Source: a virus
IMG/VR virus record: IMGVR_UViG_3300021256_000065
Reading direction: 5' to 3' (one strand)
DNA length: 36,205 nucleotides
Both the position numbers and the translations under genes were made by a program. The notes beneath the pieces were generated by a model, which was not told the origin of the DNA, ran no database searches, and worked only from the letters and a program-made list of their open reading frames with translations. Shown in pieces: positions 14,611 through 36,205 of the stretch; within the stretch, counting starts at the first letter, position 1, and each line of letters starts with the position of its first letter.

Positions 14611-14615
14611 AATAA

Positions 14616-15209: not shown

Positions 15210-15230
15210 TCATATACCTCCTATTAAAAA

Positions 15231-15818: not shown

Positions 15819-15897
15819 ATTAAAACTCCTTTTATCTCTTTATAAAAAAATAGGGGAGAAGAATTAAAATAATTATTCTCCCCTATTAAATAATATA

Positions 15898-16962: not shown

Positions 16963-16979
16963 TGTCTTTTTCCTCCTTA

Positions 16980-17558: not shown

Positions 17559-17586
17559 TTTCAGCATCCTCCTAATAATTAAAAAA

Positions 17587-18918: not shown

Positions 18919-18999
18919 AATAAAATTCTCCTTTCATTCCCTCATATTTATATTAAAAATTTAGGCATTTTCTTTAACGGCTTTTGTCCAAAAAATTTT

Positions 19000-20580
19000 T
19001 TAGCTCATTGATTCTTTATTTTGTAAAGTTTTTGTTGATTTTTCATCATCAGCTTTTTCCGGCCTGCCCGCGCCATCTCCACTTTCTGAACCACCCTACT
19101 TGCGATTAAGAACTTCCGCATTCATAGTGCTAGACATTAATGGAGGAATAAATACATTAACCAAATCAAGAATATCATTTTCAAAATAAGCAGTAGCCAA
19201 TACTGCACTTTGTGCTTGACCCAATGCTATTTGCGGCAACATTTTAGAATAACCTAATTGAGTATGTTCCTTATATTGTTTAGCTAAATCTTTATAATTA
19301 TAGATTGTAGTAGGAAGAATTTGTGCTCTATAAGTAACCTTTTTTGGACTTCGATTATAAGGTATTAATAGAGTATTTAAAAATGTTTCAAACTGTTGAA
19401 TCAAATTCCACATTGAAGCTTCATCATTTAAGATAGATTTTTCAAGAGCAATGTTACCATCTGTGTTAAATTGCATTTGTGAAACACCTGCTTCATTATA
19501 AACAGTTCGTTCCACTTTTTCCAAATCATCTGTAGTAGTTGATGTCTTATTATCAGCCATGTCTGCGACTTCAACATCCGCAAAAGTAGTTAAAACATCA
19601 ATTCCAATAGCCTTAGATAGCATTTGAACCGCATTGTTATGAAGTTGTTGCGCTTCATCTACATCAAATACTAAATCACCATTTTTATCAATAGGCATTT
19701 TCTGAATGATAATTTTTAACAATTGTTGTTGCATTTTGCGGCGGTCGAGGTCCTGTGCCGCATCCAAATCAATAATTGCAGGAATCACCGCAATAAAAGG
19801 AGGAAAATCCTCCCCATTTAAATTGAATTTAATAACAGAACCAATTTCAAGTAAATACCACCCAGATTCATCTCCAGGAAAATCAGGCTTTAATTTTCCT
19901 TGTCTATACAGTTTATATCCTTTTTCAAATTCTGGTGGAAATACTTTTAACATTCTTGCAAGTTGTTCTGCATTAGCAAACATATCATTAAAATATTTCA
20001 TATTAAATTCAACCGCAGGATGACCATTTACCATAAAACGCGATCTACAATATTTTGGTGGCAATTCTTGTACAATAACAGTTCCATTTTGTGCAATTAA
20101 ATAACCATAATAACAGCCATTTTTCATTACTTTTAATGCAACTTCTCCAAAAAATTTCTTCGCTTCAAAATTATCCAAATATGCTAAAACTTTATTAAAG
20201 CCCTCAAGAAGTTTTTCAGGTTTTATTGCTTCAGTATAGTAGGGTGTAACAAGCCAATCATATCTATACATATATGCCATATAACGACACAATCTTTGAT
20301 AAATACCGCTAATCTTATAAAAATAATTAGAAATATCTCTCATTTTATCAAGGTCGTTATAATAAATTGCTCTTAAAACCTGTTCTTTATCTGCTAATTG
20401 TGGATTTACTTTACGAAGGTCACCTAATTTAAGAATCGCATCAGATATTGACTTTACTCCAACTTTAATTTTTGCAAAGTCAATAGGCACATAACCAGTA
20501 GCCTAATTAGGAATTTGGTAATCTTCAGTTCCAATCATGTTAAAGCCTTTTTTCTTTATCTAAGCCATTCGATTAATCAA
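19000..20580 (-). CDS. portal protein (putative) with 1-3 in-frame TAG codons
   Basis: Track ORF 19096..20490 ends on a TAG and continues for 31 codons to a TAA at 19000. The frame is also open upstream of the GTG at 20490. The likely start is a TTG at 20578-20580, 9 nt after 'AAGGAGAGG'. The gene lies directly downstream of terL. Confidence 0.5.
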
Positions 20581-20600
20581 CTTTAGATACCTCTCCTTCT

Positions 20601-20957
20601 TTAATATCCAGCCGCCTCTAATATATAGTCATAATTTATTCTTGCTTCATCCCAATAGGGAATGATTACTAAATTGATTCCATGATCTCGACAATATTCT
20701 CTTTTTTTCATATCATTATATTGTTGTTTTCTTAAACCATTATATCCACCAAATTTTTCTTTAGCTTCATAATGTTGAATGCCTTGAAATTCAATAAGAA
20801 AATCAATATTATGCTAATCATCAAAAACCGCAAAATCAAATCTTAGCGGGCGGCCTGTATTACTTACTAAATCTGGAAAAGAGTATTCTTCTGCGAACTC
20901 TAATCCAGACTCTTGTAGAATTTCTTCTATTTTAATTTCTCCTCTAGATGCTCGCAT
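20601..20957 (-). CDS. small PD-(D/E)xK-type endonuclease (DUF559/Vsr-like fold) with one in-frame TAG
   Basis: Protein 'MRASRGEIKIEEILQESGLEFAEEYSF...GRPLRFDFAVFDD*HNIDFLIEFQGIQHYEAKEKF...' shows the pattern 'D...(I/L)EFxG..H' typical of DUF559 and Vsr nucleases. RBS 'GGAGAaaaaat'. TAA stop. Confidence 0.4.
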
Positions 20958-21018
20958 ATTTTTTCTCCTTCACTATATTATATAAAAATTTTATCTATAA
21001 AATTAATAAACTTTGACC

Positions 21019-22755
21019 TTAAGCTGGAGTAAAAAATAAAAAGTCAGAAATATTACGTTTTTTCTTCTTTTTATTTAATTCCTATTCATAACGAATATAA
21101 TATAATCCATATATAAAAGCAGAAAATTTATCTTTCTTAATACTTCTATTGCTCTGTTTCAGAATGATATTAACTCCCTAATTTTCTTCTACAAGATTTA
21201 ACATTTGTTCTTTCAAAATTGAAGTTAATATAAAAGGCCGTAAATAATCATTTCTTTCATCAATATTCATATTTTGACCTTGTTTAGTTGACATTAATTT
21301 AGTTTTTGCCAACCCTTCATCAATTAAAAATCTAATCTTCCCACTAAACATCTGAGTTTGTGCATAACTATATGCCTATGTATTTATAGGTGCATTGGCT
21401 TTAATTAAGAATAAAATATCTCGTTCTGTCTCAGGAGTAACAAATTTTTTATATTCTGGATATTCATCTGTATTATAAACACCAAAAGGAGGTAAATATT
21501 CACCATCATCTGTATCTTGCGCTTTAACTAAATAATCAATAAGCCCAACTCCTAGACCATTAGCGTCGACTGCAATTCTACGCGGCCTATATTTATAATA
21601 CAAATGTTTTATATGAATACATTGAGTTTCAAAGTGTTCTGCATCATAAGTATAAATATTTACAAGAGTCTTATGAGCTGCCCCTTGAACTTGCGGAGTG
21701 ACCTTAAAAACACAAATCTCTGTAGTACATCCAACACGTCCAACGTCTATACCAAATACATAATAAGCATTTTTTGAAGACCGTCCGCTATATTCATACT
21801 ATGGTTGTAATAATACTCTATATTTATCAAATTTTTCAGAAGAAAAGAATGCGTTTTCTACATCACCAGACCAGATACTACGATATTCTCTATTGAATGA
21901 CTCATCATTAAAAGTACCTTGTAATCTTAATTGCTATACAAAATCTTCATCCAATAGACCAGAAATCACAGGTGTTTCATAAGTTCCGCCCATAATCATA
22001 TATTCTTCTGGATCAATGATAGAATTAATTAAAATTTCAATTAATTTGTGATAAGCAAAACTATTTTTCCATCCCGCTGTGGTTATATAAATTTGTGATT
22101 TATTAACATTCTCCTCTTTGTGGCGGCTACCATCTGAAAGTCTTCTATCAACGTTTGTAGTAGGAATAATAACTTCATTTAGAATATCACCATCAATTAA
22201 TACGCACTCTTCCATTAATCCACCAGTACGACGTTGACCTCTAGATGACTGCCTCGCCGCTAAGATATCAATAGTAGAGCCATTCTTAAATACATATTTA
22301 ACGTTATCTTTTGATTTAGTAGATACACCGCGATCCCAGTTAATTTCATTATTTAACCCAGGTATGAGTTTACATATTTCCTAAATTTTAGCAATAGTAA
22401 TAGAAGCAGCTTGCTCCTTTCCGCCTGTAGTCACAAATAAATGCGAATTAGGATATAAGATGCATCTAATCATTAATGCCATCATTGATAAAAAAGATTT
22501 AGAATATGCGCGCGGGAATGTCGCATACACATACCGATGCCGCATCACAATTCTAAGAAAAATTCTTTGATAAAATAAAAAATTAAATGTGCTATCTTTT
22601 CCTTTTATAAAATCCACAAAAATATCAGGATATTCCCTAAAATAAGCAATTAAATCTCTTAATCCATCTATGTCTTTCAATAGCCGCTATTCTGATAAAC
22701 CTTGTTTTTTATACTATCTGTCGGAGGATAACTGAAGTAATTCTTTTAAATTCAT
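21019..22755 (-). CDS. terL: terminase large subunit TerL with at least 7 in-frame TAG codons
   Basis: The ATG at 22755 follows 'AGGAGGcttaaacacga' and overlaps the upstream TGA (ATGA). The frame joins track ORFs 22381..22680, 21934..22215 and 21376..21603. Features include a Walker-A-like 'ATFPRAYSKS' and nuclease motifs 'FGIDVGRVG' and 'IAVDANGLGVG'. The stop is TAA at 21019. Confidence 0.75.
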
Positions 22756-24089
22756 TCGTGTTTAAGCCTCCTATTTATGTATTCTTCTTCAATTAAATCA
22801 TCATTTAAGTCATCATCATGATCTTTCATGTGATTTAAGGATTTTTTATAATTAGTAAAATCATCATCATCTAATTCCACATTATCTAATCCTTTAGCTT
22901 TTGCATCTTTTTTATCTTTTTTCATTTCATTTGAAATGCGTTTATCTTGCAAATATTTTTCAATTTCTTGCGCTAATGATTTATCTTCATAAATTAAGTT
23001 TTTATTATATGCTTTTAAATCTAAAATAATTTGATCAACAATATCTTGCGGCTAATTGCAATGATAACGTGGAATTTCTCCGCTATGAGCCTCAACAAAA
23101 TCAACAATAGCAGAAGCAGAATCAATTGTATCAGCATCTTTATCTTTATTCTGCGCCTATGTAAATTTTGCGGACTTCATCATAGAATCATAGACACGCG
23201 ATAATTTCTGGTAAGAATCGATGTCGCCGCAATCAATAGCCTCATTCATTTTGAGGGATGTCTTGCAAATCATTTTTAATGTATCAATACGTGCCGCCCC
23301 TTGAATATCAAATGAATTCATAAATTCATTATATAATTGTTCAAGAGCAACCCACTGACTGGGTTTATAAAGTCGGCCCCATTTAACCGCAAGATACATT
23401 TTATCATCATCATCTAAATTCGCACCAGGATCAACTATTTCGCTTTCCGCCATAAAATTTTGTTCTCTAAATGGATTTTTTGCTTGATTAAGCGCCTAGG
23501 CGTATGACTATGGTTGACCGTAAACCTGGAATATTTGGCCTAAATGTTCTCCTGTAATAGCATCCCCCCACCGCGGTAATTCCTTATTTTGAGTTTCTGT
23601 GCTAACAAGAGTCTGATACTAGGCGGGGGATATTTTTCCTTCGCTCAATTTAACTTTTAACGAGGCCTAATACCGCGCCTTCTCTTCTGCTTCGGCCTTT
23701 TCTTTTTTAGCCTTTTCCGCGTCCATTTCTTCTTGAATTTTTTTGGTATCCGCGTATCCATATTTGCTCCATTGTTTGAGCTTCATTTTAGCAAGATATT
23801 TACCAATAACAGACATTCCATTCATTTTATAAGGATCTTTCGCAAAAGCCTTATCTCTTAATACGTTCCATTCAGTAGGAATATAAGGAACATCCATTTT
23901 TTCAAGAATCCATTCAAAAGTGCTAGGATCAAAATTATCTATATGTGCGGTTAAGCATGGCTTGCAAATTTCACATTTACTACCATCTTTATATGTATAA
24001 AAATTTATTTGTGCAATTTTTTTGCCACACCGCTCGCATTGACATTTACCATTTGCGTCTTCTTGCTGTCCTTTTAATTTTTGCGCCAT
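22752..24089 (-). CDS. terminase small subunit-like protein with an N-terminal zinc ribbon and 6 in-frame TAG codons. It could be two coupled genes in one frame.
   Basis: Frame-continuous through track ORFs 23667..24089, 23157..23453 and 22752..22952. N-terminus 'CQCERCGKK...CEICKPC'. RBS 'AAAGGAGActtt'. The C-terminal TGA overlaps the terL ATG. Confidence 0.35.
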
Positions 24090-24138
24090 AAAAGTCTCCT
24101 TTCTTCATTTTTTATTTTTAAAAAAATTCTTTAATGAA

Positions 24139-25242
24139 TTAAAGACTTTTGTCCTTTTTCTTATTTCTACAACATTTACAAATACTATACCAACCATCCT
24201 TTGAAGTTCTATTTCTTGTAAAAAAATAAGGATGAGCAAGTTTTACCTAATGACAGCGCGAACATTTTTTCCATTTTCCTTTTTCTTCTATTGTATAATG
24301 CCAAATTATCCAATCTTCTTTTGCTTTTTCAGAAATAATTTTTGGGATTTTTTTCCGCCACACTGAAGATAAATATTCAATAGAATAAGTGATATTATAT
24401 TTATTTTTTATCTTTTCCGCAATTTCTTTATTTTGAAGTCCATCTATTTTATAAATCATAATATCATATAAAATAGGATAATCATCTTTCAATGCTCTTT
24501 CTATAAGATTATCTAGATCCTCCATTAAGTACCACCAATCATCGTCAAAATGGCCCCAAACGTCTTCTTTTAATTTAGAATAATTACACAATAGACAACA
24601 AACATGCTATGGATTAAATAGTGATACTAAACAGTTACTTTCTGGGTCAAAATTTTCATTTATTTTTATTTTTTCATTTAAATTTATTTGATTAGCGCTT
24701 TTGGTTATCCGCATCATAGTAATGGGCGGTTTGTAGATACTTTTTAATACATATTGATCTTGTCTAGCTTCAATTAATTGTTTTGTAAGTAAGAATTTTT
24801 GTTTTCCCTTAGCCGCCTTTTGCCGCGCCTCTATTTTTTTAATTTCTTCTCTTAATTCTTTTAATCCTGGTATAGTTATTATATCTTCTTCTGTGATTTG
24901 TATTTTTGGAACTAATAAAATGTTTTTATCGCCGCCAGTCATAAAGTTATAAATGCCATCCTCGCCATTCTATAACTTGGAAACTAGACCTTCATAGGAG
25001 ATTTCTCTTTTGTTGATAGTTACCATCCTATTGTCTGTTAAGACTTTCCGCTCTTTTTTATTATCATAAGTTTCTGTTAAGTATTTTGTAAGCTATTCTA
25101 AATAATAAGGAGTAAGTTTTTCTGAGGGAATATTATTAACAATTTCATGTACTATTTTATTACGCTATTGAGGGTCAATAATAGTATAATCCAAGGTGGG
25201 ATAAGGTCTTTTAGACTACATATTTTCTAACTCTTTTTCCAT
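24139..25242 (-). CDS. first gene of the late operon: putative transcription regulator with a sigma-70 region-4-like HTH and a C-terminal zinc ribbon. Contains 6 in-frame TAG codons.
   Basis: The ATG at 25240-25242 follows 'AAAGGAGtatttc'. The frame runs through track ORFs 24607..24942 and 24247..24591 to the TAA at 24139. 'YKIDGLQNKEIAEKIKNKYNITYSIEYLSSVWRKKIPKI' resembles sigma region 4.2. The C-terminus reads 'CSRCH...CKCC'. Confidence 0.35.
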
Positions 25243-25274
25243 GAAATACTCCTTTCCGCTAATTCATTAATTAC

Positions 25275-27425: not shown

Positions 27426-27664
27426 GAGGGGAAGTCATTTCCTCGATTTAGAGAGGGAATCGCTTTTTCGATTCAAAAATACTTTTGGAGAGAGAAATGT
27501 GGTGGAGAAGATCAATTGTGAATTTTTTAACATTTTCATCCCAAAAAACACCCCCCGGTATAAACAAGGTATGGTCGCTAGCTTCGTTAAATAATTAACA
27601 GACCTGGCAAAAATACAGGCCCTAAATAAACATGAAAAGATATTAAAATATTTTAGAGTATTCT

Positions 27665-27727
27665 AAAAACACACTTTTAAAAAACATGTGAAAATAAATC
27701 ATTGCATGTTTTTAAGTGTGTTTTTTT
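27665..27727. repeat. Large imperfect palindrome: about 22-bp arms with a 16-nt loop and a T-run. It could be a terminator or a structural element.
   Basis: 'AAAAACACACTTTTAAAAAACATG' is followed 16 nt later by its near-reverse-complement 'CATGTTTTTAAGTGTGTTTTTTT'. Confidence 0.5.
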
Positions 27728-27855
27728 ATTGAAAATGAAAATGTGTTATTTTAAAAAAATGATTATTAATAAAAAGATTTTACTAATTGAGCGTTTCAAT
27801 AAATTAAAAAATGTATTAAAATAATGAATAGATAAAATATTAACAATGTTCATGT

Positions 27856-27930
27856 TTCTAATGTAGCGACTTTGTTAAAAAATTAACAAAGTTTGTAATG
27901 TAGCAACTTTGTTAAAAAATTAACGAAGTT
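27856..27930. repeat. Two 33-bp direct repeats (iteron-like), each containing the 22-bp palindrome CTTTGTTAAAAAATTAACAAAG. A third partial copy lies at 28166-28198.
   Basis: 'AATGTAGCGACTTTGTTAAAAAATTAACAAAGT' and 'AATGTAGCAACTTTGTTAAAAAATTAACGAAGT' start 38 bp apart. A region with AT content above 85% lies just upstream, at 27730-27855. Confidence 0.55.
27870..27891. promoter_or_regulatory. Palindromic operator-like site CTTTGTTAA-AAAA-TTAACAAAG, the strongest copy of this motif family
   Basis: Perfect 9-bp inverted arms around an AAAA centre. Confidence 0.5.
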
Positions 27931-28269
27931 AGAAGCTAACGACTTCTGTTGGCCACAACAAACTTTGACCAATTTTTATTTTTTGGCTTTAATAAAATGA
28001 GTTTACTAATTAGCAAAAGAACAGGATCAGATAGTAAACAGACTGTACTAATTAGACAATGTAGCGAATACTTCAATACACTAAAGTGTTAGAGAACTAA
28101 AGCAACAGCAGACGAAAGGCACACAAAGCGACTAAGTAATAACTGTTTACTATATTAATAAGAACTAATGTAGAAAGATTGTTAAAAAATTAACGAAGTA
28201 ATGATACTTACAGACTTAAAAACACTAAAAAGTAAATTCATTTTACAATATATTTTTTTCAAAAAAGTG

Positions 28270-28298
28270 TTGACTTTTTCCCGGACTTTTGATATAAT
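28270..28298 (+). promoter_or_regulatory. sigma-A consensus promoter (TTGACT-17-TGaTATAAT) for cassette ORF 28347
   Basis: Read directly. It is followed by the conserved leader 'CAAATCATCAAAGAGAGG'. Confidence 0.55.
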
Positions 28299-28346
28299 CA
28301 AATCATCAAAGAGAGGTACACAAAACAAGAAAGAGAGGATAAGGAA

Positions 28347-28610
28347 ATGAAAAAAGAGACTTGCGGAGTTGCTATAGAAAACAATCTGAAAGTAAATGCT
28401 TTCCATTACGTACCAGAAACAAAGGAAGAAGAAATCAAAGAAACCGAACAAACTATCGCATTCCTTAAGAATCAGTTGGCTGACTATGAAAAAGAACTCC
28501 AGGAAACGGTCAAGGCTCAAAGAAGAAGCGAAATCAGCTTCCACATCGACATGATTCAGAGGAGAATAAAATTTGAAGAAAAAAATCTTTTTTTCCAAAA
28601 AAACGCTTGA
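28347..28610 (+). CDS. hypothetical early cassette protein with coiled-coil character
   Basis: 87-aa ORF with RBS 'GAGAGGATAAGGAA'. The TGA stop overlaps the -35 of the next promoter. Confidence 0.5.
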   Translation: MKKETCGVAIENNLKVNAFHYVPETKEEEIKETEQTIAFLKNQLADYEKELQETVKAQRRSEISFHIDMIQRRIKFEEKNLFFQKNA

Positions 28611-28635
28611 CAAAAATCCGGTTCTCTATTATAAT
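28607..28635 (+). promoter_or_regulatory. sigma-A promoter TTGACA-17-TATAAT for the HAD hydrolase cassette
   Basis: Read directly. Confidence 0.5.
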
Positions 28636-28665
28636 AAAGATAACAAAAGAGAGGAGAACAAAGAA

Positions 28666-29106
28666 ATGACAAGAACAATCTTCTTCGATATGGATGGAAC
28701 AATCGCAGACCTTTACAAAGTAGACGGATGGTTGACCGACCTTATCAACAAAGATGTAAGACCTTACAGAGAAGCCAAAGTGATGCACAACATGCAAGTG
28801 CTTGCAAGACTTCTCAACAGACTTCAAAGGGAAGGAAACAAAATAGCAATCATCAGTTGGCTAGCAAAAAACAGCACAGAAGAATATGACGCAAGAGTAG
28901 CACAGACTAAAAAAGAATGGTTGAAAAAACATCTCACAAGCGTTAATTTCGATGAAATCCACATTGTAAAATATGGAACAAAAAAAGAAACATTCATTCA
29001 CACAGAAAACGACATTCTCTTCGACGATGAAGAGCAGAACAGAAACAACTGGACAGGAAAAGCTTACAACGTAAACAATATAATCGAAACACTGAAGAGC
29101 CTTTGA
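28666..29106 (+). CDS. HAD-superfamily hydrolase, 5'(3')-deoxyribonucleotidase-like
   Basis: The N-terminal 'FFDMDGTIAD' matches HAD motif I (DxDGT). RBS 'GAGAGGAGAACAAAG'. The ORF track start at 28573 reads through the promoter and is not used. A terminator follows at 29095-29121. Confidence 0.5.
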   Translation: MTRTIFFDMDGTIADLYKVDGWLTDLINKDVRPYREAKVMHNMQVLARLLNRLQREGNKIAIISWLAKNSTEEYDARVAQTKKEWLKKHLTSVNFDEIHIVKYGTKKETFIHTENDILFDDEEQNRNNWTGKAYNVNNIIETLKSL

Positions 29107-29308
29107 AAAGGCTCTTTTTTAATGCAGAATGTTAGTTATGACTAATTCTCGCGGCGAGCGAGATTGTTAAAAAAATAACAAACGCAGGCGGGCGCTTGAA
29201 GCCGAAAAATTTTATCACAGGTGGGTCGCACTTGTCAAGATGAAAAATTGCACAAAATAACAAATTAAATTTTTTCCCATTTTGTGCAATATTTTTTTCC
29301 AAAATGTG

Positions 29309-29337
29309 TTGACAAAAACCGGGTTATCGCTTATAAT
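29309..29337 (+). promoter_or_regulatory. sigma-A promoter TTGACA-17-TATAAT
   Basis: Read directly. 'CCGGG' occurs in the spacer. Confidence 0.5.
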
Positions 29338-29383
29338 TACATCAGAAACAAACAAGAGAGCTAAACAAAAGGAGGATAAAAAA

Positions 29384-29593
29384 ATGACAGGATACAAAGT
29401 TACAATGGAAATGAATGGAAGAAGAACCGACAGCTTTTCGGGATACATTAAAACAATGGAAGAAGCCAAAGATTATTGCGAATGGCTTGGTAAAGAAAAT
29501 GAACCGAAAATCATCACCTGCAACAAGAAAAGAATTACAAGATGGTTTAACTGGTATGAAACTAAAAAGGCATGGGAAAATCTTGAGGATTAA
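29384..29593 (+). CDS. hypothetical early cassette protein (69 aa)
   Basis: RBS 'AAAAGGAGGATAAAAAA'. Stops on TAA, followed by the hairpin 'GAGGATTAAAAATCCTC'. Confidence 0.5.
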   Translation: MTGYKVTMEMNGRRTDSFSGYIKTMEEAKDYCEWLGKENEPKIITCNKKRITRWFNWYETKKAWENLED

Positions 29594-29623
29594 AAATCCT
29601 CAAGATTTTTTTATTGCATCTGC

Positions 29624-29680
29624 ATTGTTAAAAAATTAACAAACGTCTGTTTGCATCTAGATTGTTAATTTTTTAACAAT
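29624..29680. promoter_or_regulatory. Two adjacent copies of the palindromic motif: ATTGTTAAAAAATTAACAAAC and TTGTTAATTTTTTAACAA
   Basis: Sites at 29624-29644 and 29663-29680, upstream of the promoter at 29768. Confidence 0.45.
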
Positions 29681-29767
29681 TTTCGCTGGACCGCGCACTG
29701 CCACATTGCACAAAGGGTCTTTTGTTTTTGAGATTTTTTTTGTGTATTTTTTTCTTCATGTAATAGG

Positions 29768-29796
29768 TTGACTTTTCCGGTTAAATAGCTTATAAT
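29768..29796 (+). promoter_or_regulatory. sigma-A promoter TTGACT-17-TATAAT with the conserved leader
   Basis: Read directly. Confidence 0.5.
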
Positions 29797-29842
29797 CAAA
29801 TCATCAAAGAGAGATAGACATCAAAAGAAAGGAAAAAACATC

Positions 29843-30028
29843 ATGACATTATTATTCGCAATCTCAACCGCAATCTTCATTATCAGCTCTTTTATCATTT
29901 TCATCTTCTCTTGGAAAATTACTGAAAAAACTCAAGACATCTTAAGAATTGTTGCTCTTGTTAGCGCAATAATGATAATCGTATCACTATTTATTTTTCC
30001 ATTTATTCAAGTATTTTTTTTAAAATAA
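29843..30028 (+). CDS. small membrane protein with two transmembrane helices
   Basis: Sequence 'MTLLFAISTAIFIISSFIIFIFSWKI...IVALVSAIMIIVSLFIFPFIQVFF'. Confidence 0.5.
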   Translation: MTLLFAISTAIFIISSFIIFIFSWKITEKTQDILRIVALVSAIMIIVSLFIFPFIQVFFLK

Positions 30029-30031
30029 TGA

Positions 30032-30060
30032 TTGACAATCTAGTCAATCTCTGTTATAAT
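30032..30060 (+). promoter_or_regulatory. sigma-A promoter TTGACA-17-TGtTATAAT
   Basis: Read directly. Confidence 0.5.
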
Positions 30061-30090
30061 CAAATTATCAAAAGAAAGGAGATATAAACA

Positions 30091-30222
30091 ATGAAAACTA
30101 CAAGAGGTTGGTACATCTTCAAGGACGGCACGCAGGCATGGTTCAATGGTCTCTCCGCAAGAGAGAAGAGGAACGAAGTCATAAAGCACGGCGAGATTGT
30201 CAAATTCATCCCCACACCTTGA
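30091..30222 (+). CDS. small basic protein (43 aa)
   Basis: RBS 'AAAGGAGATAT'. The TGA stop is followed by the terminator 'GAGGCTCtacatGAGCCTCTTTTTT' at 30221-30246. Codon usage is richer in GC than the neighbouring cassettes. Confidence 0.45.
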   Translation: MKTTRGWYIFKDGTQAWFNGLSAREKRNEVIKHGEIVKFIPTP

Positions 30223-30336
30223 GGCTCTACATGAGCCTCTTTTTTATGTGCAGAATATTGATACTTACATTAAACGTATTCAAAAGTTAAAAGTTGGTGA
30301 TTTTGATTGTTAAAAAAATAGCTTTCAAAAAAAGTG

Positions 30337-30365
30337 TTGACATTATTCCGGACATCTGATATAAT
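30337..30365 (+). promoter_or_regulatory. sigma-A promoter TTGACA-17-TGaTATAAT
   Basis: Read directly. Confidence 0.5.
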
Positions 30366-30395
30366 TAAATCATCAAAAGAAAGGAGATATAAAAA

Positions 30396-30647
30396 ATGTT
30401 ATACAGAATTGACAGAGAATTTGATGAATACATTGGTGCAGGAGAATACGAAACAAAAAAATATTATCAGTATGTATGTGGTTTACATAATGTTGGTAAA
30501 GCTTGCCTTGATACAGATGAGAACGATAGAATTGTTCGAATTGTAAAATTGAATTTTTCTATTAAAGGTTTGATTGTATGCTTGAAAAAAACTTGTTCTT
30601 CTCAGTATAATCAAACAAGTACAGAAAAATTTTCAAAAAAGTGTTGA
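30396..30647 (+). CDS. hypothetical early cassette protein
   Basis: RBS 'AAAGGAGATAT'. The stop overlaps the next -35. Confidence 0.45.
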   Translation: MLYRIDREFDEYIGAGEYETKKYYQYVCGLHNVGKACLDTDENDRIVRIVKLNFSIKGLIVCLKKTCSSQYNQTSTEKFSKKC

Positions 30648-30672
30648 CAAACCAGATGAAATATGATAATAT
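30644..30672 (+). promoter_or_regulatory. sigma-A promoter TTGACA-17-TGaTAATAT
   Basis: Read directly. Confidence 0.45.
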
Positions 30673-30701
30673 TAAATCATCAAAAGAAAGGAGAAACAAA
30701 A

Positions 30702-30878
30702 ATGAACGAAAGAGAAAAGCTTTTAGATAGGATGATTAGAATCTACGGTTTTGAACATGAACTGGTCATCGAGTTCGCGGGGATGATTGAAAACCCCAGC
30801 TATAAGACCGAAATCCTTGAAACCTTGGTGAGATGCCACGAGGCGTGCCCACAGATTACAGACAAAGAGGACCTATAG
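30702..30878 (+). CDS. hypothetical early cassette protein (58 aa). It ends on a TAG that lies in the loop of a terminator hairpin.
   Basis: RBS 'AAAGGAGAAAC'. The TAG at 30876-30878 sits within 'GAGGACCTATAGGCCCTCTTTTTC'. Read-through would add 59 residues across two GC-rich hairpins. Confidence 0.45.
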   Translation: MNEREKLLDRMIRIYGFEHELVIEFAGMIENPSYKTEILETLVRCHEACPQITDKEDL

Positions 30879-30925
30879 GCCCTCTTTTTCTATGTGCGGC
30901 GCGCTTTCTGCCGGCGCGCGCCGAA
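30867..30925 (+). terminator. Twin terminator: a hairpin plus T-run, followed by the GC-rich hairpin CGGCGCGC...GCGCGCCG
   Basis: Read directly. The same twin structure recurs at 31895-31953. Confidence 0.55.
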
Positions 30926-31117
30926 AAATCCATTCTATCATACCTGTCACCTTTTGTCAAGGGAAAAATTGCACAAATTTTCATCGAAATTTTATCCCAA
31001 AATTCGTCACTTTTTCAAAAGTGAAAAATCAGTCTTTTCTTGTTAAAATTTTGACAATCGCCTAAAAATGAAAAATCGGTGATTTTGATTGTTAAAAAAA
31101 TAACTTTCAAAAACATG

Positions 31118-31146
31118 TTGACAACCGGGCAGATTGGGTTTATAAT
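31118..31146 (+). promoter_or_regulatory. sigma-A promoter TTGACA-17-TATAAT (paralogous to the promoter at 32223)
   Basis: The -35 is 'TTGACAACCGGG'. The leader 'AAGGTTACAAACAAGGAAGGGAGA' is shared with the cassette at 32223. Confidence 0.5.
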
Positions 31147-31177
31147 AAGGTTACAAACAAGGAAGGGAGATCCACCA

Positions 31178-31645
31178 ATGAAGAAAATCAGCACTCTTAC
31201 CAATATCGAATACATGTTCGACCCGAACCGCTCCGGCGCTAAGTATACACTAGACGGCACACACTATATGAACAACGGAGAGTTTGCCGAAGTCGCTACA
31301 AAGGTGGCTCTTGGATATGAACCCCATAAGGATGCTAACACCGCATATAGCGAAGGGAGTGACATCCCTGAACTCCGAGCAAGCGTTAAATCCAGTAAAG
31401 CAACCTTAGTCAATATGAAACTTGCGGATGGATTTGAAGAGTCAATTGAAGTTTACTTCAAAAATACTCATAGCACTTGCTTCATCTACACCGTCCTTTT
31501 GGATGACATGACAACTCTCTATATAATGGACGCCGCTGAATTTAGAGAGTTCATCCACAGATTTGCTACCCTCAATGAGAGAGGCTTCATCCGCTTCAAA
31601 GCTACCAGCGGAAAGACGATCCAGTGGCTAGAGGAGAGGGTATAA
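31178..31645 (+). CDS. hypothetical early cassette protein (155 aa) with GC-rich codon usage
   Basis: The real ATG is at 31178, after 'AAGGAAGGGAGA'. The track ORF start at 31079 runs through the promoter and is not used. Confidence 0.5.
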   Translation: MKKISTLTNIEYMFDPNRSGAKYTLDGTHYMNNGEFAEVATKVALGYEPHKDANTAYSEGSDIPELRASVKSSKATLVNMKLADGFEESIEVYFKNTHSTCFIYTVLLDDMTTLYIMDAAEFREFIHRFATLNERGFIRFKATSGKTIQWLEERV

Positions 31646-31681
31646 ACCCTCTCCCCAACAAAATTTTTTCAAAATTAACAC

Positions 31682-31710
31682 TTGACAAATATTAAATCAT
31701 CTGTTATAAT
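31682..31710 (+). promoter_or_regulatory. sigma-A promoter TTGACA-17-TGtTATAAT
   Basis: Read directly. Confidence 0.5.
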
Positions 31711-31740
31711 TAAATCATCAAAGAACAGGAGAACAAAACA

Positions 31741-31896
31741 ATGACAAAAGAACAAATTAAAAACATGATGGAAGCAACAGGACAAAAACTTATTTATGAG
31801 GATGACTACAATCTTGAATATGAAAATCCTATGTATGGAGAAACTATTAATTTTGAATTTAACTCAGAAGGGTTATTCTATAAAATTTATAGCTGA
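31741..31896 (+). CDS. small early cassette protein (51 aa)
   Basis: RBS 'AACAGGAGAAC'. TGA stop, then the twin terminator. Confidence 0.45.
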   Translation: MTKEQIKNMMEATGQKLIYEDDYNLEYENPMYGETINFEFNSEGLFYKIYS

Positions 31897-31953
31897 GGGC
31901 GGAAGCCCTCTTTTTTATGCGCGGCGCGCTGGTGGCCGCACCAGCGCGTTTTT
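31895..31953 (+). terminator. Twin terminator: GAGGGCggaaGCCCTC plus T-run, then CGCGCTGGTGgccgCACCAGCGCG plus T-run
   Basis: Read directly. Confidence 0.6.
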
Positions 31954-32043
31954 CCATTGTACCATACCCATCGGGTTTTGTCAATTGACATTTTGCACAA
32001 ATTTTAATGCTAAAAATATCCTAAAATTCGTCATTTTTTCAAA

Positions 32044-32215
32044 AGTTAAAAATTGGTAGATTTCTTGTTAAAAATTTAACAATCGACTAAAAGTGAAAAA
32101 TCGGCAAAGTTCTTGTTAAACTTTTAACAATCTACCTACCACCCCTTGTTAAATTCTTAACAAGGGAAAAGTTAAAAATCGGCGGTTTTGACTTTGTTAA
32201 AAAAATAACTTTTAA
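32044..32215. repeat. Tandem array of four palindromic TTGTTAA-N4/5-TTAACAA sites, each preceded by a 'AAAGT(G/T)AAAAATYGG' half-unit. It lies directly upstream of the promoter at 32223.
   Basis: Palindromes at 32065-32082, 32113-32130 and 32144-32165 (CCTTGTTAAATTCTTAACAAGG), plus the half-site 32196-32211. A two-copy version of the same array sits at 31020-31100. Confidence 0.55.
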
Positions 32216-32222
32216 AAAGGGG

Positions 32223-32251
32223 TTGACAACCGGAGTAATAGGGCTTATAAT
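32223..32251 (+). promoter_or_regulatory. sigma-A promoter TTGACA-17-TATAAT
   Basis: 'TTGACAACCGGAG' plus the shared leader. Confidence 0.5.
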
Positions 32252-32282
32252 AAGGGTACAAACAAGGAAGGGGGACAACCTA

Positions 32283-32744
32283 ATGACTACCAACACCGCA
32301 CTCCACATCAATCTGATTGACCGCTACAATGCCGTTGCTTACACCCATGAGTATGTATGGGGCTTCACCTACAAAAAGAATGTCTATATGGCAATCACCG
32401 ACGCAACTGTGATGCCGTTCGTTACCTGCCTTGACAAGGCAAGCCGTGGTGCTGGATATGCACTCCGCTTCTGCCCCAACACTCAGCAGAAAATCGCTCT
32501 GCTTCCATATGCGACCCTCCTTTGCTCTGAAGCCTACTTCAATGAGGTAGTCGCCGATAGCAAGTATAATAAGGGCGAAATCTTTGAAAAAATGGTTACC
32601 GAACATTTCGGGCAGACTTGGGAAAAGGATAATGTCCCCTTCACAGAAGACGGCGATATCACAGTCAACGGTACTGCATATCAAATCAAGTTCCAGAAAG
32701 CCACCTTCTGCAACGAAAAGAGCATAGCCAACCTTGAAAAATAA
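32283..32744 (+). CDS. hypothetical early cassette protein (153 aa) with GC-rich codon usage
   Basis: ATG follows 'AAGGAAGGGGGA'. The track start at 32223 is spurious. Confidence 0.5.
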   Translation: MTTNTALHINLIDRYNAVAYTHEYVWGFTYKKNVYMAITDATVMPFVTCLDKASRGAGYALRFCPNTQQKIALLPYATLLCSEAYFNEVVADSKYNKGEIFEKMVTEHFGQTWEKDNVPFTEDGDITVNGTAYQIKFQKATFCNEKSIANLEK

Positions 32745-32785
32745 GGTTGGCTATATAGCCCGGGCGCTTGAAAAAAAATTTCATA

Positions 32786-32814
32786 TTGACATTTTAAAAA
32801 AACTATTGTATAAT
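32786..32814 (+). promoter_or_regulatory. sigma-A promoter TTGACA-17-TGTATAAT
   Basis: Read directly. Confidence 0.5.
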
Positions 32815-32841
32815 GTATATAGAAAGTGAGGGAAGAACAAA

Positions 32842-33102
32842 ATGAAAACTTTTATATTCGCTTTTTTCTTGACTATCGCAGGAATCATCGGAACATGGGA
32901 ATCTGAATATTCTAGACCCGTAATCTGCACCTACTATGACCCCTGCACTAATATTTCTACTTTCACAGACAATAGCGGGAATGATTGGGAATGGGAAAAT
33001 GAAAATGATGAAGTTTTTGAAATCGGAAAGTCCTATACCATCATCATGGATGATAATCATTCTTCTTCTATCTATGATGACATCATTAAAAAAATAAAAT
33101 AA
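32842..33102 (+). CDS. small protein with an N-terminal hydrophobic segment, either secreted or membrane-anchored
   Basis: 'MKTFIFAFFLTIAGIIG' followed by an acidic soluble part. RBS 'AGTGAGGGAAGAAC'. Confidence 0.45.
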   Translation: MKTFIFAFFLTIAGIIGTWESEYSRPVICTYYDPCTNISTFTDNSGNDWEWENENDEVFEIGKSYTIIMDDNHSSSIYDDIIKKIK

Positions 33103-33118
33103 AAAAATAAAAAACCTA

Positions 33119-33147
33119 TTGACAAACTAGAAAAGAAAGTTTATAAT
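33119..33147 (+). promoter_or_regulatory. sigma-A promoter TTGACA-17-TATAAT
   Basis: Read directly. Confidence 0.5.
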
Positions 33148-33178
33148 AGACTTATCAAAAGAAAGGAAGAAAAAAATT

Positions 33179-33409
33179 ATGACGAACGTATCCTATGATA
33201 TTTACCGCAACAATCAGAAAGTAAAAAATGTAACTACCTACGCTGAGGCGGTTGCTTCTGTTAAAGAGCTGGGCGGGCGCGGGACTTTCAAGACTGTTTA
33301 CACTAGCTTCAACCCCGAAGACACCGCAGAAAAGCGTGAATACGCCCATTCTCACGCTCAGAAAGTACATGAAGCGCTGAAGCGTAAAGCAGGGGTTAAG
33401 AAACATTAA
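33179..33409 (+). CDS. small basic protein (76 aa)
   Basis: RBS 'AAAGGAAGAAAAAAATT'. GC-rich codons. Confidence 0.45.
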   Translation: MTNVSYDIYRNNQKVKNVTTYAEAVASVKELGGRGTFKTVYTSFNPEDTAEKREYAHSHAQKVHEALKRKAGVKKH

Positions 33410-33457
33410 CCCCTGCACCCCCACAAATAAGAATACAATAGAAAGGAAGTAAAAAAA

Positions 33458-33679
33458 ATGAAAGTATCTATTAACTATTCAATTCCTGTTTCAGCGGTTA
33501 TTGTTTTTGATGAAATTTTCCGTTGTTCTGAACTGACTGACGGCTCTTATCCCCTGCAGAGATACATTGATAAAGCTGAAGAACTTATGCATATGTACGG
33601 TTTTGAATGGGCAGATATCATTGATGATGATGACGGTACTGTGATTGCTCAAATTGAAAGAGAGGACGATGATGAATGA
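33458..33679 (+). CDS. small, strongly acidic protein
   Basis: C-terminus 'ADIIDDDDGTVIAQIEREDDDE'. RBS 'AAAGGAAGTAAAAAAA'. It is co-transcribed with 33179. Confidence 0.45.
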   Translation: MKVSINYSIPVSAVIVFDEIFRCSELTDGSYPLQRYIDKAEELMHMYGFEWADIIDDDDGTVIAQIEREDDDE

Positions 33680-33765
33680 TACTAATGGTATTGTTGATGA
33701 TGACAGCGGCCTTCCTTATAGTTTTACTGAATGATGATGGCCCAAATAGACCGAGGTTTACATGA
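33676..33765 (+). CDS. 29-aa hydrophobic micro-ORF coupled by an ATGA overlap to the acidic protein gene
   Basis: 'MILMVLLMMTAAFLIVLLNDDGPNRPRFT'. Its stop lies in the loop of the terminator at 33749-33780. Confidence 0.25.
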   Translation: MILMVLLMMTAAFLIVLLNDDGPNRPRFT

Positions 33766-33820
33766 CCTCGGTCATTTTTCGCCCGGGTCGCATGTTAAAA
33801 AAATAACTAACAAAGACCGC

Positions 33821-33849
33821 TTGACATTCTTTTATTGTTTTGATATAAT
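33821..33849 (+). promoter_or_regulatory. sigma-A promoter TTGACA-17-TGaTATAAT
   Basis: Read directly. Confidence 0.5.
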
Positions 33850-33875
33850 CATTATCAGAAAGGAGATGTAACACA

Positions 33876-34367
33876 ATGAAATTTTTGAATGAAGATTTAC
33901 TTGTTTCCTTAGTAGATGATTTTCTTGAGCCTTTTGGCCTTGACTCAGATTTTTCAAGTGATTTTTCATACGACCCTGAAGATGAAAGAGTTTATTTTTC
34001 AATCGCTTTTTCTGAAAGGTCTGATAGACTTTTTAAAGAGTATGTTGAAAAAACTTTTCATTTCAATGTTCCACACATTTTTATGATTAGTTTGTTGCAT
34101 GAGGTTGGACATTTTTTCACCCTACATACATTTTCTAAAATGAGATTAGAAGCTGTCCACTCAGCAAAAAATCTCATTGAAGAAGCGTTAAAAATGGATG
34201 ACGATGATGAAATCTATTCTTTGTATTTTGATTTAAGCATCGAAAAGGTTGCAACGGCTTGGGCGGTTGACTATTACAGAAAAAACATGAAACGCTGTGA
34301 AGATTTTTATTCAAAGTTTGTAAATGCCCTTAGAACGGAATATAAAAGGCTGGGAGTGACTGAGTAA
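33876..34367 (+). CDS. putative zinc metallopeptidase (HExxH motif)
   Basis: 'ISLLHEVGHFFTLHTF' contains HEVGH. 163 aa. RBS 'AAAGGAGATGT'. Confidence 0.4.
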   Translation: MKFLNEDLLVSLVDDFLEPFGLDSDFSSDFSYDPEDERVYFSIAFSERSDRLFKEYVEKTFHFNVPHIFMISLLHEVGHFFTLHTFSKMRLEAVHSAKNLIEEALKMDDDDEIYSLYFDLSIEKVATAWAVDYYRKNMKRCEDFYSKFVNALRTEYKRLGVTE

Positions 34368-34424
34368 GTCACCCCTAACCGCCCGGGCAGCGAGATTGTT
34401 AAAAAAATAACTTTTAAAATGGTA

Positions 34425-34453
34425 TTGACATTTGTTCCTTTGTGTGGTATAGT
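34425..34453 (+). promoter_or_regulatory. sigma-A promoter TTGACA-17-TGgTATAGT
   Basis: Read directly. Confidence 0.45.
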
Positions 34454-34479
34454 ATAACCATGAAAGAGAGGTAAACAAA

Positions 34480-34821
34480 ATGGCTCGTAAAATTTTCTTC
34501 GCAAGAGATTGGGACAAAGTTGGTAGAAATTATTATGAAATTTATACCACTGTTTGTATGGGATATACTTTTACTGTTGGAAAAGGAATTGAAAGAGACC
34601 CGAACTTTTCTATCTTTTATGTAACTAATGATGGACAGCATGACCATTACGAAATCCTTAATGTTTACATTACTGCAGGCGATACCATCGAAGATACACA
34701 GAAAGGCGTTCTTACTACTCTCAAAAGAGAAATGAAAAGAGTTATTCAAAGAGGGTTGACAACTCGTGTAAAAAGTGGTATGCTTACTATAGAACAGATA
34801 GAAAGGTGGGTAACAAAATGA
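34480..34821 (+). CDS. hypothetical early cassette protein
   Basis: RBS 'AGAGAGGTAAAC'. Confidence 0.5.
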   Translation: MARKIFFARDWDKVGRNYYEIYTTVCMGYTFTVGKGIERDPNFSIFYVTNDGQHDHYEILNVYITAGDTIEDTQKGVLTTLKREMKRVIQRGLTTRVKSGMLTIEQIERWVTK

Positions 34822-34956
34822 CAAATTTAAAAGATTTTATGTTATTTCAAATAGGCTCCTATCAAGTTATGGGATTATTCAGTAAAAAAGCTGATACGAA
34901 ACTCAAACGTATTTTACATTATTTGCCTGTATTGATTATTAAGAAAGGATAACAAA

Positions 34957-35196
34957 ATGTATAAACTCTATTCAAGAATAAGTGACCATGAAACAATCCT
35001 TGAACTGTGGGGCGCATCAACCAAACATCCTGATAGCGTGTTTTTCTTTTCAGAATTTGAACCAAGCCCATGGTTTGACAGGATTGACCAAATTGTTCCT
35101 TGGCTTCTGGAATGCGCAAGCAAAATGAACTGGCCTATCCATTCTTACGAACTGGCAAAATGGGCGTGCATGATTTACGAGTCATGGCGCGGTTAG
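34957..35196 (+). CDS. hypothetical early cassette protein
   Basis: RBS 'AAGAAAGGATAAC'. Confidence 0.45.
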   Translation: MYKLYSRISDHETILELWGASTKHPDSVFFFSEFEPSPWFDRIDQIVPWLLECASKMNWPIHSYELAKWACMIYESWRG

Positions 35197-35218
35197 AATT
35201 AATGAAAGGAGATACATC

Positions 35219-35350
35219 ATGCAGGAACTTTTCGATCTTTTCTATCTCTATGATTACATGGTTATGCACACTGTTGATGAAGAATATGAGGAATACATAC
35301 ACCTGCGTCGTTACGTTGCAAAGCTGATTGAGGGGTTGGGGGCTGAGTAA
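35219..35350 (+). CDS. small protein (43 aa)
   Basis: RBS 'AAAGGAGATACATC'. The 3' end carries the shared element 'GGGGGCTGAGTAAGTCCCC'. Confidence 0.4.
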   Translation: MQELFDLFYLYDYMVMHTVDEEYEEYIHLRRYVAKLIEGLGAE

Positions 35351-35434
35351 GTCCCCACTAACTTTGCCGGGCGGCCCGTCGATTTACACAAAAGGATCCA
35401 TATTTTCAATTTGATTTTTGTGCAACATTACGTC

Positions 35435-35463
35435 TTTACAAATCAAGAAACCTTTGCTATAAT
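35435..35463 (+). promoter_or_regulatory. promoter TTTACA-17-TATAAT driving a roughly 170-nt transcript that carries only an 8-codon mini-ORF
   Basis: Read directly. Downstream are the hairpin GAGGGaaacaaaaagCCCTC and an RBS plus 'MRMPRDWI'. Confidence 0.4.
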
Positions 35464-35652
35464 CTAGTTACAAGGTGAGGGAAACAAAAAGCCCTCAAAA
35501 CTCAAAAGGGTTAGACAACAAGGCGCGCTGAGTCTAGCTTTTGGATTGAAAGGAGACAAGCAAAATGAGAATGCCGAGAGATTGGATTTAATCCCTTTGG
35601 CTGAGTAGGAATGCCACTGTATGATTTGTAAAAAATAAAAATAAAAAACCTC

Positions 35653-35681
35653 TTGACAAATAGGGCGACTTGTGGTATGAT
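35653..35681 (+). promoter_or_regulatory. sigma-A promoter TTGACA-17-TGgTATGAT driving a 6-codon leader ORF (MMKIKK) and hairpins
   Basis: 'AAAGGAGATAGATAAGCCC ATGATGAAAATTAAGAAATGA', then GCGCT...AGCGC and GGTAGCGGTGG...CCACC hairpins and an A7T8 tract. Confidence 0.4.
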
Positions 35682-35855
35682 CTAATCACAGGTTAAGAAA
35701 GGAGATAGATAAGCCCATGATGAAAATTAAGAAATGAGCGCTTAGACTTGGGCATGGAGCGCTATGACATAAATTAAAAGGACTTGTCCATGGTAGCGGT
35801 GGATTGGCCACCCACCGAACTACCGAAACTTAAAAAAATTTTTTTTAAAAAAAGC

Positions 35856-35884
35856 TTGACAACTGAATAAGGAACTGATATAAT
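35856..35884 (+). promoter_or_regulatory. sigma-A promoter TTGACA-17-TGaTATAAT with the conserved leader
   Basis: Read directly. Confidence 0.5.
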
Positions 35885-35933: not shown

Positions 35934-36205
35934 ATGACAAAACTTACCTACGCTATGGCTATCGACTTCGCAACCGCAATCATCACCAATGGAACTGCTG
36001 ATTTCAACGGCTTCTCCGCTGATGAGTACCTTGAGAAGCTGGAGTCCCTCAAGGCTTCCCTTGCAAGACGCAACGGCAGTGAGAGAAAACCCACCAAGAC
36101 CCAGCAGGCAAATGAGGGTCTGAAAGAAGATATGTGGGCTTACGTTTCTGAGAATGGCGCAAAGCGTGCCAATGAGGTCGCTGAACACTTATCTTCTTTC
36201 AGACC
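35934..36205 (+). CDS. hypothetical early cassette protein, 3'-partial (runs off the window), with GC-rich codon usage
   Basis: ATG follows 'AAAAGGAGATGTATACT'. The frame is open to the window end. It is not in the ORF track because it has no stop. Confidence 0.5.
   Translation, partial: MTKLTYAMAIDFATAIITNGTADFNGFSADEYLEKLESLKASLARRNGSERKPTKTQQANEGLKEDMWAYVSENGAKRANEVAEHLSSFR

Follow-up and report, generated by a model that had tools for sequence, protein, structure and literature searches.

The early region of an uncultured phage carries a short palindrome in many of its intergenic spacers, which raises the question of what binds it. The DNA concerned, IMG/VR virus record IMGVR_UViG_3300021256_000065, was analysed over its whole length of 36,205 nucleotides (nt), referred to here as the window, and the palindrome is TTGTTAA-N4-TTAACAA. 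A preliminary description had listed 15 copies; all of them were found, each a few bases at most from where it had been placed, over eight intergenic spacers. That description had merged two classes, namely ten true palindromes (class A) and five half-degenerate copies (class B). The class A 18-mer is identical, letter for letter, to the Clostridiaceae consensus for the operator of Rex, a repressor that senses NADH/NAD+ in anaerobic Firmicutes, with six perfect copies and four at one mismatch. The class A sites are as follows.

27872-27889: TTGTTAAAAAATTAACAA, perfect; core of a 24-base-pair (bp) palindrome (27869-27892) inside a 33-nt repeat (27860-27892)
27909-27926: TTGTTAAAAAATTAACGA, one mismatch; inside the second 33-nt repeat (27897-27929)
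28179-28196: TTGTTAAAAAATTAACGA, one mismatch; the -35 hexamer at 28270 is 73 nt downstream
29164-29181: TTGTTAAAAAAATAACAA, one mismatch; 127 nt upstream of the plus-strand promoter at 29309 and at about +30 of the minus-strand promoter at 29238
29625-29642: perfect; first of a pair with a spacing of 37 nt
29662-29679: TTGTTAATTTTTTAACAA, perfect; the -35 hexamer at 29768 is 88 nt downstream
31040-31057: TTGTTAAAATTTTGACAA, one mismatch; 60 nt to the -35 hexamer at 31118; retained in the close strain L022 with an altered spacer
32065-32082: perfect; unit 1 of a three-copy array; this unit is missing in L022
32113-32130: perfect; unit 2 of the three-copy array
32146-32163: perfect; unit 3 of the three-copy array; 59 nt to the -35 hexamer at 32223

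The counts of exact and one-mismatch copies indicate that the motif is real and strongly non-random. Exact copies start at 27872, 29625, 29662, 32065, 32113 and 32146, against 0 in 100 dinucleotide-preserving shuffles, and copies with one mismatch start at 27909, 28179, 29164 and 31040. Beyond these ten sites in 27872-32163, no further palindrome with 0-1 mismatch was present anywhere in the 36 kb window. An extended locus (L001) holds 13 palindromes at up to two mismatches, compared with 0.59 expected.

The 22-mer CTTTGTTAAAAAATTAACAAAG at 27870 had been described as a perfect palindrome, which it is, and its symmetry in fact reaches 24 bp (27869-27892). As for the three 33-nt direct repeats that had been reported, those at 27860-27892 and 27897-27929 fit the consensus, while that at 28167-28199 deviates from it at three positions. 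In the longer spacers the repeat unit is about 37-50 bp and consists of AAAAGTGAAAAATCGG, about 7 nt and then the palindrome. The 7-nt arms are invariant, the 4-nt spacers vary (AAAA, TTTT, AATT, AAAT, ACTT, ATTC) and the symmetry is not consistently continued beyond the arms. A logo of 585 unique sites reads aGA-TTGTTAAA-WW-TTTAACAA-TCt; its spacer positions are 87-96% A/T and its flanks hold at most 0.4 bit, giving conservation over about 18-20 bp, as for the Rex operator. Fixed half-sites around a free A/T-rich spacer look like the signature of a protein-binding site. The dyad site for a dimeric regulator that had been proposed is supported as far as its symmetry goes, with invariant arms and a free spacer, but its fixed position relative to promoters is not.

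The consensus of the Clostridiaceae Rex operator is TTGTTAANNNNTTAACAA (PMC9600882; PMC4600107), and this site has been confirmed for Rex of C. thermocellum by DNA affinity purification sequencing (DAP-seq) and electrophoretic mobility shift assay (EMSA) (PMC8457756). In PMC9600882, PMC4600107 and PMC8457756, the use of TTGTTAANNNNTTAACAA as the clostridial Rex operator (ROP) is traced to Ravcheev 2012 and Zhang 2014, and PMC2883068 gives a W4 spacer for the S. aureus Rex site. It had been stated that no matching regulator was evident; this no longer holds, as the sequence is the known operator of Rex and a winged-helix gene starts at 35934.

The same boxes recur in other viral and metagenome contigs. 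T-type boxes are TTGTTAA-N4-TTAACAA and G-type boxes, the general flavour of Rex site, are TTGTGAA-N4-TTCACAA; contigs were scanned for tandem pairs, that is, two perfect boxes 15-45 nt apart. The scan gave T-type pairs in 45 viral contigs of IMG/VR and in at least 120 contigs from metagenomes, and two composition-matched control palindromes gave 0 and 0 matches in the same kind of scan. Among the matches listed, GC content spans 22-52%, and the 165 loci group into 59 clusters by nucleotide sequence; 70 of the 165 have at least two open reading frame (ORF) families in common with the window's phage group and 80 have none, many of the latter being short. These contig counts overstate the number of independent events, related loci being counted separately. 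Tight tandem arrays with a period of 24-28 bp occur in six loci (L032, L073, L166, L087, L161 and L182). G-type pairs were found in 20 viral contigs, about nine of them in the window's phage group; several loci contain mixed T- and G-type arrays, and one (L036) has sites with halves of different flavours. Host Rex would be the simplest binder to keep one specificity over so many unrelated contigs. One IMG/VR viral contig with 65% GC (L208) has two perfect G-type boxes 48 nt apart at 10032-10097, within an AT-richer intergenic spacer; these may be sites of Rex or of the CRP/GlxR type, in a phage from another phylum.

Boxes of this kind are also found on bacterial contigs. Three of these (L164, L170 and L172) carry tandem perfect boxes 17 and 62 nt before the start codon of an operon, spanning its predicted promoter and leader. 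The operon is for a NuoE-like 2Fe-2S protein and a NuoF-like FMN/Fe-S subunit, corresponding to a HydABC-type NADH hydrogenase. NADH-dependent hydrogenase operons are among the reported members of the Rex regulon. The presence of boxes at a bacterial redox operon shows that the pattern does recover sites resembling genuine Rex operators in anaerobes of the same collection. On another contig (L133) tandem boxes adjoin a gene with a CCG domain, possibly LutA-like; PMC9600882 lists a predicted Rex site at a gene for lactate utilisation.

Similar to the clostridial Rex operator, the phage sites are 18-bp inverted repeats with an A/T-rich 4-nt spacer, their variation follows the known Rex axis of TTGTTAA versus TTGTGAA, and the tandem arrangement is common to the phage arrays and the bacterial hydrogenase operon of the metagenome. 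They differ in forming arrays, with up to three sites per spacer here and up to 11 perfect boxes per locus elsewhere among the matches listed. Six of the ten are perfect, whereas the predicted chromosomal Rex sites given for one bacterium have several mismatches to the consensus (PMC9600882). The phage sites, for which Rex binding is predicted, also lie beside promoters and not across them; in contrast to the bacterial boxes, which straddle the predicted promoter and leader, they are depleted between -60 and +20. The early promoters of the window are given below.

28270-35884, plus strand: train of early promoters, near-consensus sigma-A-type TTGACA-17-TATAAT, each serving one or two small ORFs
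28270, 28607, 29309, 29768, 30032, 30337, 30644, 31118, plus strand: starts of the first eight of 16 early -35 hexamers
31682, 32223, 32786, 33119, 33821, 34425, 35653, 35856, plus strand: starts of the last eight

The class A sites stand in arrays of one to three in five long intergenic spacers of the early region, across 4.3 kb, without overlapping a promoter. The next -35 hexamer lies 59-380 nt downstream, at no fixed distance. A position 10-25 bp upstream of the -35 hexamer had been claimed for every copy; this applies to the five of class B, with a gap of 11-12 nt, and not to the ten of class A. Nor is there a copy at each promoter, as about half of the 16 strong early promoters have none (28607, 30032, 30644, 31682, 32786, 33119, 35653 and 35856). 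The depletion of site centres from -60 to +20 was measured around 1111 promoter-like sites in about 165 loci, and over about 190 related or unrelated loci the true palindromes avoid this interval; outside it sites are spread both upstream and downstream with no preferred distance. With no promoter overlapped, titration, insulation or looping is a better fit than simple occlusion. In strain L022, whose 155-amino acid (aa) marker protein is 96% identical, the half-sites are kept, and a spacer base and the number of units differ.

Class B consists of half-degenerate copies of TTGTTAAAAAAATAAC(TT) that deviate from the palindrome at three to four positions; a sixth such copy is found just past the end of the window. 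The five within it are listed here.

30307-30324, plus strand: TTGTTAAAAAAATAGCTT, four mismatches; 12 nt to the -35 hexamer at 30337; family D8
31089-31106, plus strand: TTGTTAAAAAAATAACTT, three mismatches; 11 nt to the -35 hexamer at 31118; centre at about -55.5
32194-32211, plus strand: 11 nt to the -35 hexamer at 32223
33792-33809, plus strand: ATGTTAAAAAAATAACTA; 11 nt to the -35 hexamer at 33821; CCCGGG lies before the copy, at 33782
34396-34413, plus strand: 11 nt to the -35 hexamer at 34425; GCCCGGGC lies before the copy, at 34381

These copies are part of a 35-nt conserved promoter-upstream module (family D8), which is also found in relatives. Their centre at about -55.5 overlaps the zone of UP elements, the phased upstream A-tracts of sigma-A promoters. 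A UP element would be an A/T-rich tract between -40 and -60 at a fixed distance from the -35 hexamer; class B shows this, with A-tracts near -54 and -43, and class A does not, being far upstream and conserved in G, C and T rather than in an A-tract. The UP-like role that had been suggested for the A-tract is therefore reasonable for class B and not for class A. Class B is the degenerate last, promoter-proximal unit of the class A repeat, and probably acts as an A-tract UP element as well.

The explanation tentatively preferred, with a likelihood put a little below even, is that class A represents high-affinity arrays for a dimeric winged-helix protein of Rex specificity, most likely host Rex; this would tie early expression to the redox state or titrate Rex. 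At a low ratio of NADH to NAD+, the arrays would be filled by Rex dimers; these, together with the weaker class B copy at about -55 in the UP-element zone, would damp or insulate early transcription. At high NADH, Rex would be released from the arrays. Replicating phage arrays would also draw Rex off the host operators, and the NADH-recycling fermentation genes would be derepressed. Competition for Rex would be favoured because the phage sites match the consensus better than the chromosomal sites of PMC9600882 and because phage replication raises their copy number. A more specific and rather doubtful version holds that the arrays are a Rex sponge in non-promoter early DNA, which would derepress hydrogenase and the lactate and alcohol dehydrogenases to fuel phage production, a strategy that many phages of the rumen and gut would have in common, each with the flavour matched to the Rex of its host. 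The window is phage DNA, encoding a DNA polymerase, an anaerobic ribonucleotide reductase (NrdD) and a portal protein, and contigs of the same strain encode an NrdG-type activase and SPbeta-like Yom/Yon structural proteins. Judging from these genes, NrdD and NrdG together suggest an anaerobic host, which is counted for binding by Rex.

If host Rex does bind, a large group of uncultured rumen and gut phages would be wired to the NADH/NAD+ state of their anaerobic hosts, either gating host takeover by redox or reprogramming fermentation by soaking up the repressor. This would be a new phage route to altered end-products in the rumen and gut (hydrogen, lactate, alcohols), and the arrays would offer a compact DNA part for Rex titration in engineered Clostridia. 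Should the binder prove to be a phage protein, its sharing of specificity with a global repressor of the host would be of interest too.

Several observations weigh against host Rex. Sites bound for repression by Rex normally overlap or abut the repressed promoter, while class A lies 59-380 nt away and such sites are depleted from -60 to +20. The consensus is that of Clostridiaceae; the host may lack a Rex of that specificity, and the metagenome-assembled genome (MAG) bins that contain distant relatives disagree (Erysipelotrichaceae, Acutalibacteraceae, Clostridium). The G-type scan is not specific for Rex, since G-type boxes also fit sites of the CRP family. Three small winged-helix proteins are encoded nearby by the phage itself. 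Relatives at about 80% protein identity lack the arrays and have at most one TTGTTAA palindrome, in L011 and L014, where it lies in the leader ahead of the cassette train. At the array position these relatives bear arrays of CGTTAAAG or CTTTAACGCGTTAAAG, and AGTTAGT-N4-ACTAACT. The last of these is likewise of 7-N4-7 geometry and is about as widespread, with 38 viral contigs, some of which also hold Rex-like arrays. It is not known to match the site of any host regulator, and its arrays argue that proteins encoded by these phages themselves probably bind such palindromes.

The syntenic relatives were reached through homologues of the 155-aa early protein. Arrays of AGTTAGT-N4-ACTAACT are borne by L024, L025, L011, L021 and L023 and by the 38 IMG/VR contigs (L211-L247). 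More distant loci contain dispersed GTTAGT-N4-ACTAAC and an AGTTAA-N7-TTAACT palindrome abutting the -35 hexamer; in L024 and L025 the latter, at the -35 hexamer, has a GGCCGGCC-type box before it. Relatives also have one dense repeat array upstream of one conserved gene. Early intergenic palindromes are a family trait, and their sequence switches between lineages.

The main rival, possible though on the unlikely side, is that the palindromes are the dispersed operator of a phage-encoded dimeric regulator, namely the winged-helix paralogues from the distal end of this early region, which would act back on the early cassettes to shut them off or time them. The match to Rex would then be a coincidence, or a mimicry that lets the phage protein act on host Rex targets. 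The candidate gene in the window is as follows.

35934-36205, plus strand: 5' part of a winged-helix gene, codons 1-90 of 123, truncated where the window stops; candidate phage binder

This gene is the first of three paralogues on the contig, the other two lying downstream (18417-18776 and 19366-19707 in L001 coordinates; the family is also found at L001 14757-15128). The family comprises 77 proteins in 38 loci, three to six per phage, and is also present in L011, L014, L017 and L020. Its members are 110-125 aa long; their N-terminal sequence is conserved (MTKMTYA...RKPTKxQ), and the winged helix at the C-terminus has Pfam matches to FaeA, TrmB, MarR_2 and HTH_24; no homologue was found in the PDB or in cultured phages. 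The presence of three to six such paralogues in the early region of this phage group speaks for a phage regulator, as do the relatives' AGTTAGT-N4-ACTAACT palindromes of the same 7-N4-7 geometry (38 viral contigs), the AGTTAA-N7-TTAACT palindrome that abuts their -35 hexamer, and a turnover of motifs within a conserved layout that is typical of phage repressor-operator pairs. A precedent exists in the SPBRE/MrpR system, with ten SPbeta promoter regions (PMC10516654), and the 119- and 113-aa winged-helix pair of the window's phage was seen solely in T-type loci, albeit in just three loci. No winged-helix subfamily tracks the motif type, however: the largest occur with T-type arrays, G-type arrays or no arrays, and one and the same subfamily is found in all three settings. 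Among the matches listed, only 17 of 69 large T-type loci have a winged-helix gene, and most array-bearing loci lack one within about 7 kb. The same 14-base specificity persists over 59 clusters and a 30-point range of GC, against a fast-diverging family with 30-70% identity. A coincidence with both Rex flavours would need a second explanation, and the same boxes stand at ordinary bacterial operons. Overall, the presence of winged-helix genes does not follow that of the arrays. Three other families, of about 100, 100 and 50 aa, are enriched where arrays occur, but none is encoded in the window and none shows a recognisable DNA-binding domain; they were set aside. The 155-aa protein encoded 3' of the arrays was likewise set aside, as it does not have a regulator fold and its tie to the repeats is speculative. 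A phage-encoded Rex was discounted too: no homologue was found in 1.6 Mb of phage loci, a soft negative obtained with an approximate query.

The remaining rivals are less probable. It is improbable that the arrays are centromere-like or origin-like iterons for a partition or replication protein, a role which the tight arrays of 24-28 bp period in some loci would suit, along with the frequent position of arrays in long non-coding low-complexity leaders, the differing copy number between strains and the relatives' single dense repeat array upstream of one conserved gene. Phage N15 reportedly has dispersed palindromic centromere sites near promoters, which is counted for this role. The sites are nevertheless dispersed over five spacers and 4.3 kb, their sequence is a known transcription-factor operator, and no ParA, ParB or Rep-type gene was found beside the arrays among the window's early ORFs in Pfam and PHROGs scans. 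Still less probable is an origin without any specific protein, in which curved A-tract UP elements were spread by recombination that duplicates promoter cassettes. Whole intergenic modules are indeed paralogous by alignment (families D11, D17 and D20), and class B, with its fixed 11-12 nt to the -35 hexamer, its A-tracts near -54 and -43 and its D8 module shared with relatives, would agree with this. Class A, at 59-380 nt from promoters, would not; its A/T spacer is free to change but its G, C and outer T/A are not, the opposite of selection for curvature only, and the same 18-mer occurs in unrelated contigs. Hairpins of RNA or DNA (terminators, processing sites or cruciforms) are very improbable. 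Each palindrome can fold, the single copy in L011 tips a terminator-like hairpin, and three of the four one-mismatch variants retain a G-U wobble on the plus strand. Single-copy RNA folds are however weak (-3.6 to -9.6 kcal/mol); the arms are A/U-rich and mostly of 7 bp, with no U-tract after them, and the sites lie downstream of the real GC-rich terminators. No arm covariation that preserves pairing was seen, the arm sequence itself being fixed, and the palindrome region gave no match to Rfam families or to transfer RNA (tRNA). A terminator or structured-RNA role was rejected on these grounds.

The arrays can also be set against known systems. The closest phage-encoded analogue is SPBRE, a 15-bp SPbeta element bound at ten promoter regions by the master repressor MrpR, which has a tyrosine-recombinase fold (PMC10516654). 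In both cases one short element recurs in numerous intergenic spacers or promoter regions of a large Firmicute phage, and the structural genes of SPbeta are distantly related to those of the window's phage (Pfam matches to YonG, YomU, YomV and YomW). In SPbeta one protein, MrpR, co-ordinates the early genes through a 15-bp motif; here the motif is a symmetric 18-mer identical to the site of a host regulator, and Pfam scans of the early ORFs gave no MrpR-like gene. Bacillus phage phi29 is said to carry Spo0A boxes in its early region, by which infection responds to host physiology. It is a lytic phage whose early promoters likewise bear sites for a global regulator of the host, but its 0A boxes overlap or flank the repressed promoters, form no palindromic arrays and sense sporulation and not redox. 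LexA boxes are present in several phages. The stoperators of mycobacteriophage L5 reportedly are asymmetric 13-mers in one orientation that bind the phage's own repressor. They too occur in many copies in short intergenic regions, off the promoter cores, but an L5-type stoperator was rejected here because the present sites are perfect palindromes. The Rex operator and the idea of host-regulator sites in a phage early region are already known; a literature search for Rex binding sites in phage genomes found no description of them.

The region that holds the palindromes extends from 27.6 to beyond 41 kb and is a train of small cassettes, each with a promoter, a strong ribosome-binding site and usually a terminator. 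It resembles a host-takeover early region. The window matches a 92-kb metagenome contig and is present in other assemblies, including SRR873596. SRR873596 and AUXO01 are taken to be sheep rumen, and 'RUG' presumably denotes rumen MAGs; the phage is taken to be from the rumen or gut. Its DNA polymerase and portal protein have their best described matches at no more than about 40% identity (Enterococcus phages, SPbeta-like phages and phAss-1). The nearest described relative of the portal protein is phAss-1, at 38.6% identity, a gut phage that recodes TAG and has a predicted host within Clostridia. The ATG-started DNA polymerase ORF at 205-3156 probably has its true start upstream of the window. 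A megablast of the region against phage records, a tblastn search for cultured relatives with the 155-aa and winged-helix proteins, and an IMG/VR search with the exact repeat and an early protein all gave no match.

The late and structural genes on the minus strand (window 9358-25263) have three to nine in-frame TAG codons each, and the early plus-strand genes, the DNA polymerase and NrdD have almost none. From the reading frames, a recoding of TAG (code-15-like) similar to that of phAss-1 is indicated. The window contains no suppressor tRNA; tRNA-Lys(UUU), at 18790-18864 of L001, is the sole tRNA on the part of the contig examined.

Promoters also occur on the minus strand of the early region, as follows.

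30932-30960, minus strand: TTGACA-17-TG-extended -10 promoter, conserved; inside an intergenic module, facing a GC-rich hairpin
29209-29238 and 31956-31984, and at 17881 and 18956 of L001, minus strand: paralogues of this promoter (family D11); the -10 (TGnTAnAAT) varies per copy

These promoters read toward the GC-rich hairpin and terminator of the preceding gene, and may give a short antisense RNA or oppose read-through. Long non-coding leaders before the cassette train (window 27600-28340; L017 5170-6150; L048 and L086) show a strong strand bias or low complexity, the low-complexity runs being CA-rich or made of ATT or GTTT repeats.

A second, GC-rich palindrome is confined to the distal early region. 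The 8-bp sequence GCCCGGGC occurs eight times, with one extra CCCGGG, always in intergenic DNA (window 32758, 33782 and 34381; L001-extended 36382, 36796, 37294, 38059, 40971 and 41492). These sites lie about 20-90 nt upstream of the next promoter-like -35 hexamer, and none is present in the other 32 kb. Relatives have GGCCGGCC where the window's phage has the GC palindrome. Two paralogous 5'-nucleotidase genes of the NT5C/HAD type belong to the early region, at 28666-29106 of the window and 16425-16862 of L001, with a 186-nt repeat at 74% identity, and the family is present in most related loci.

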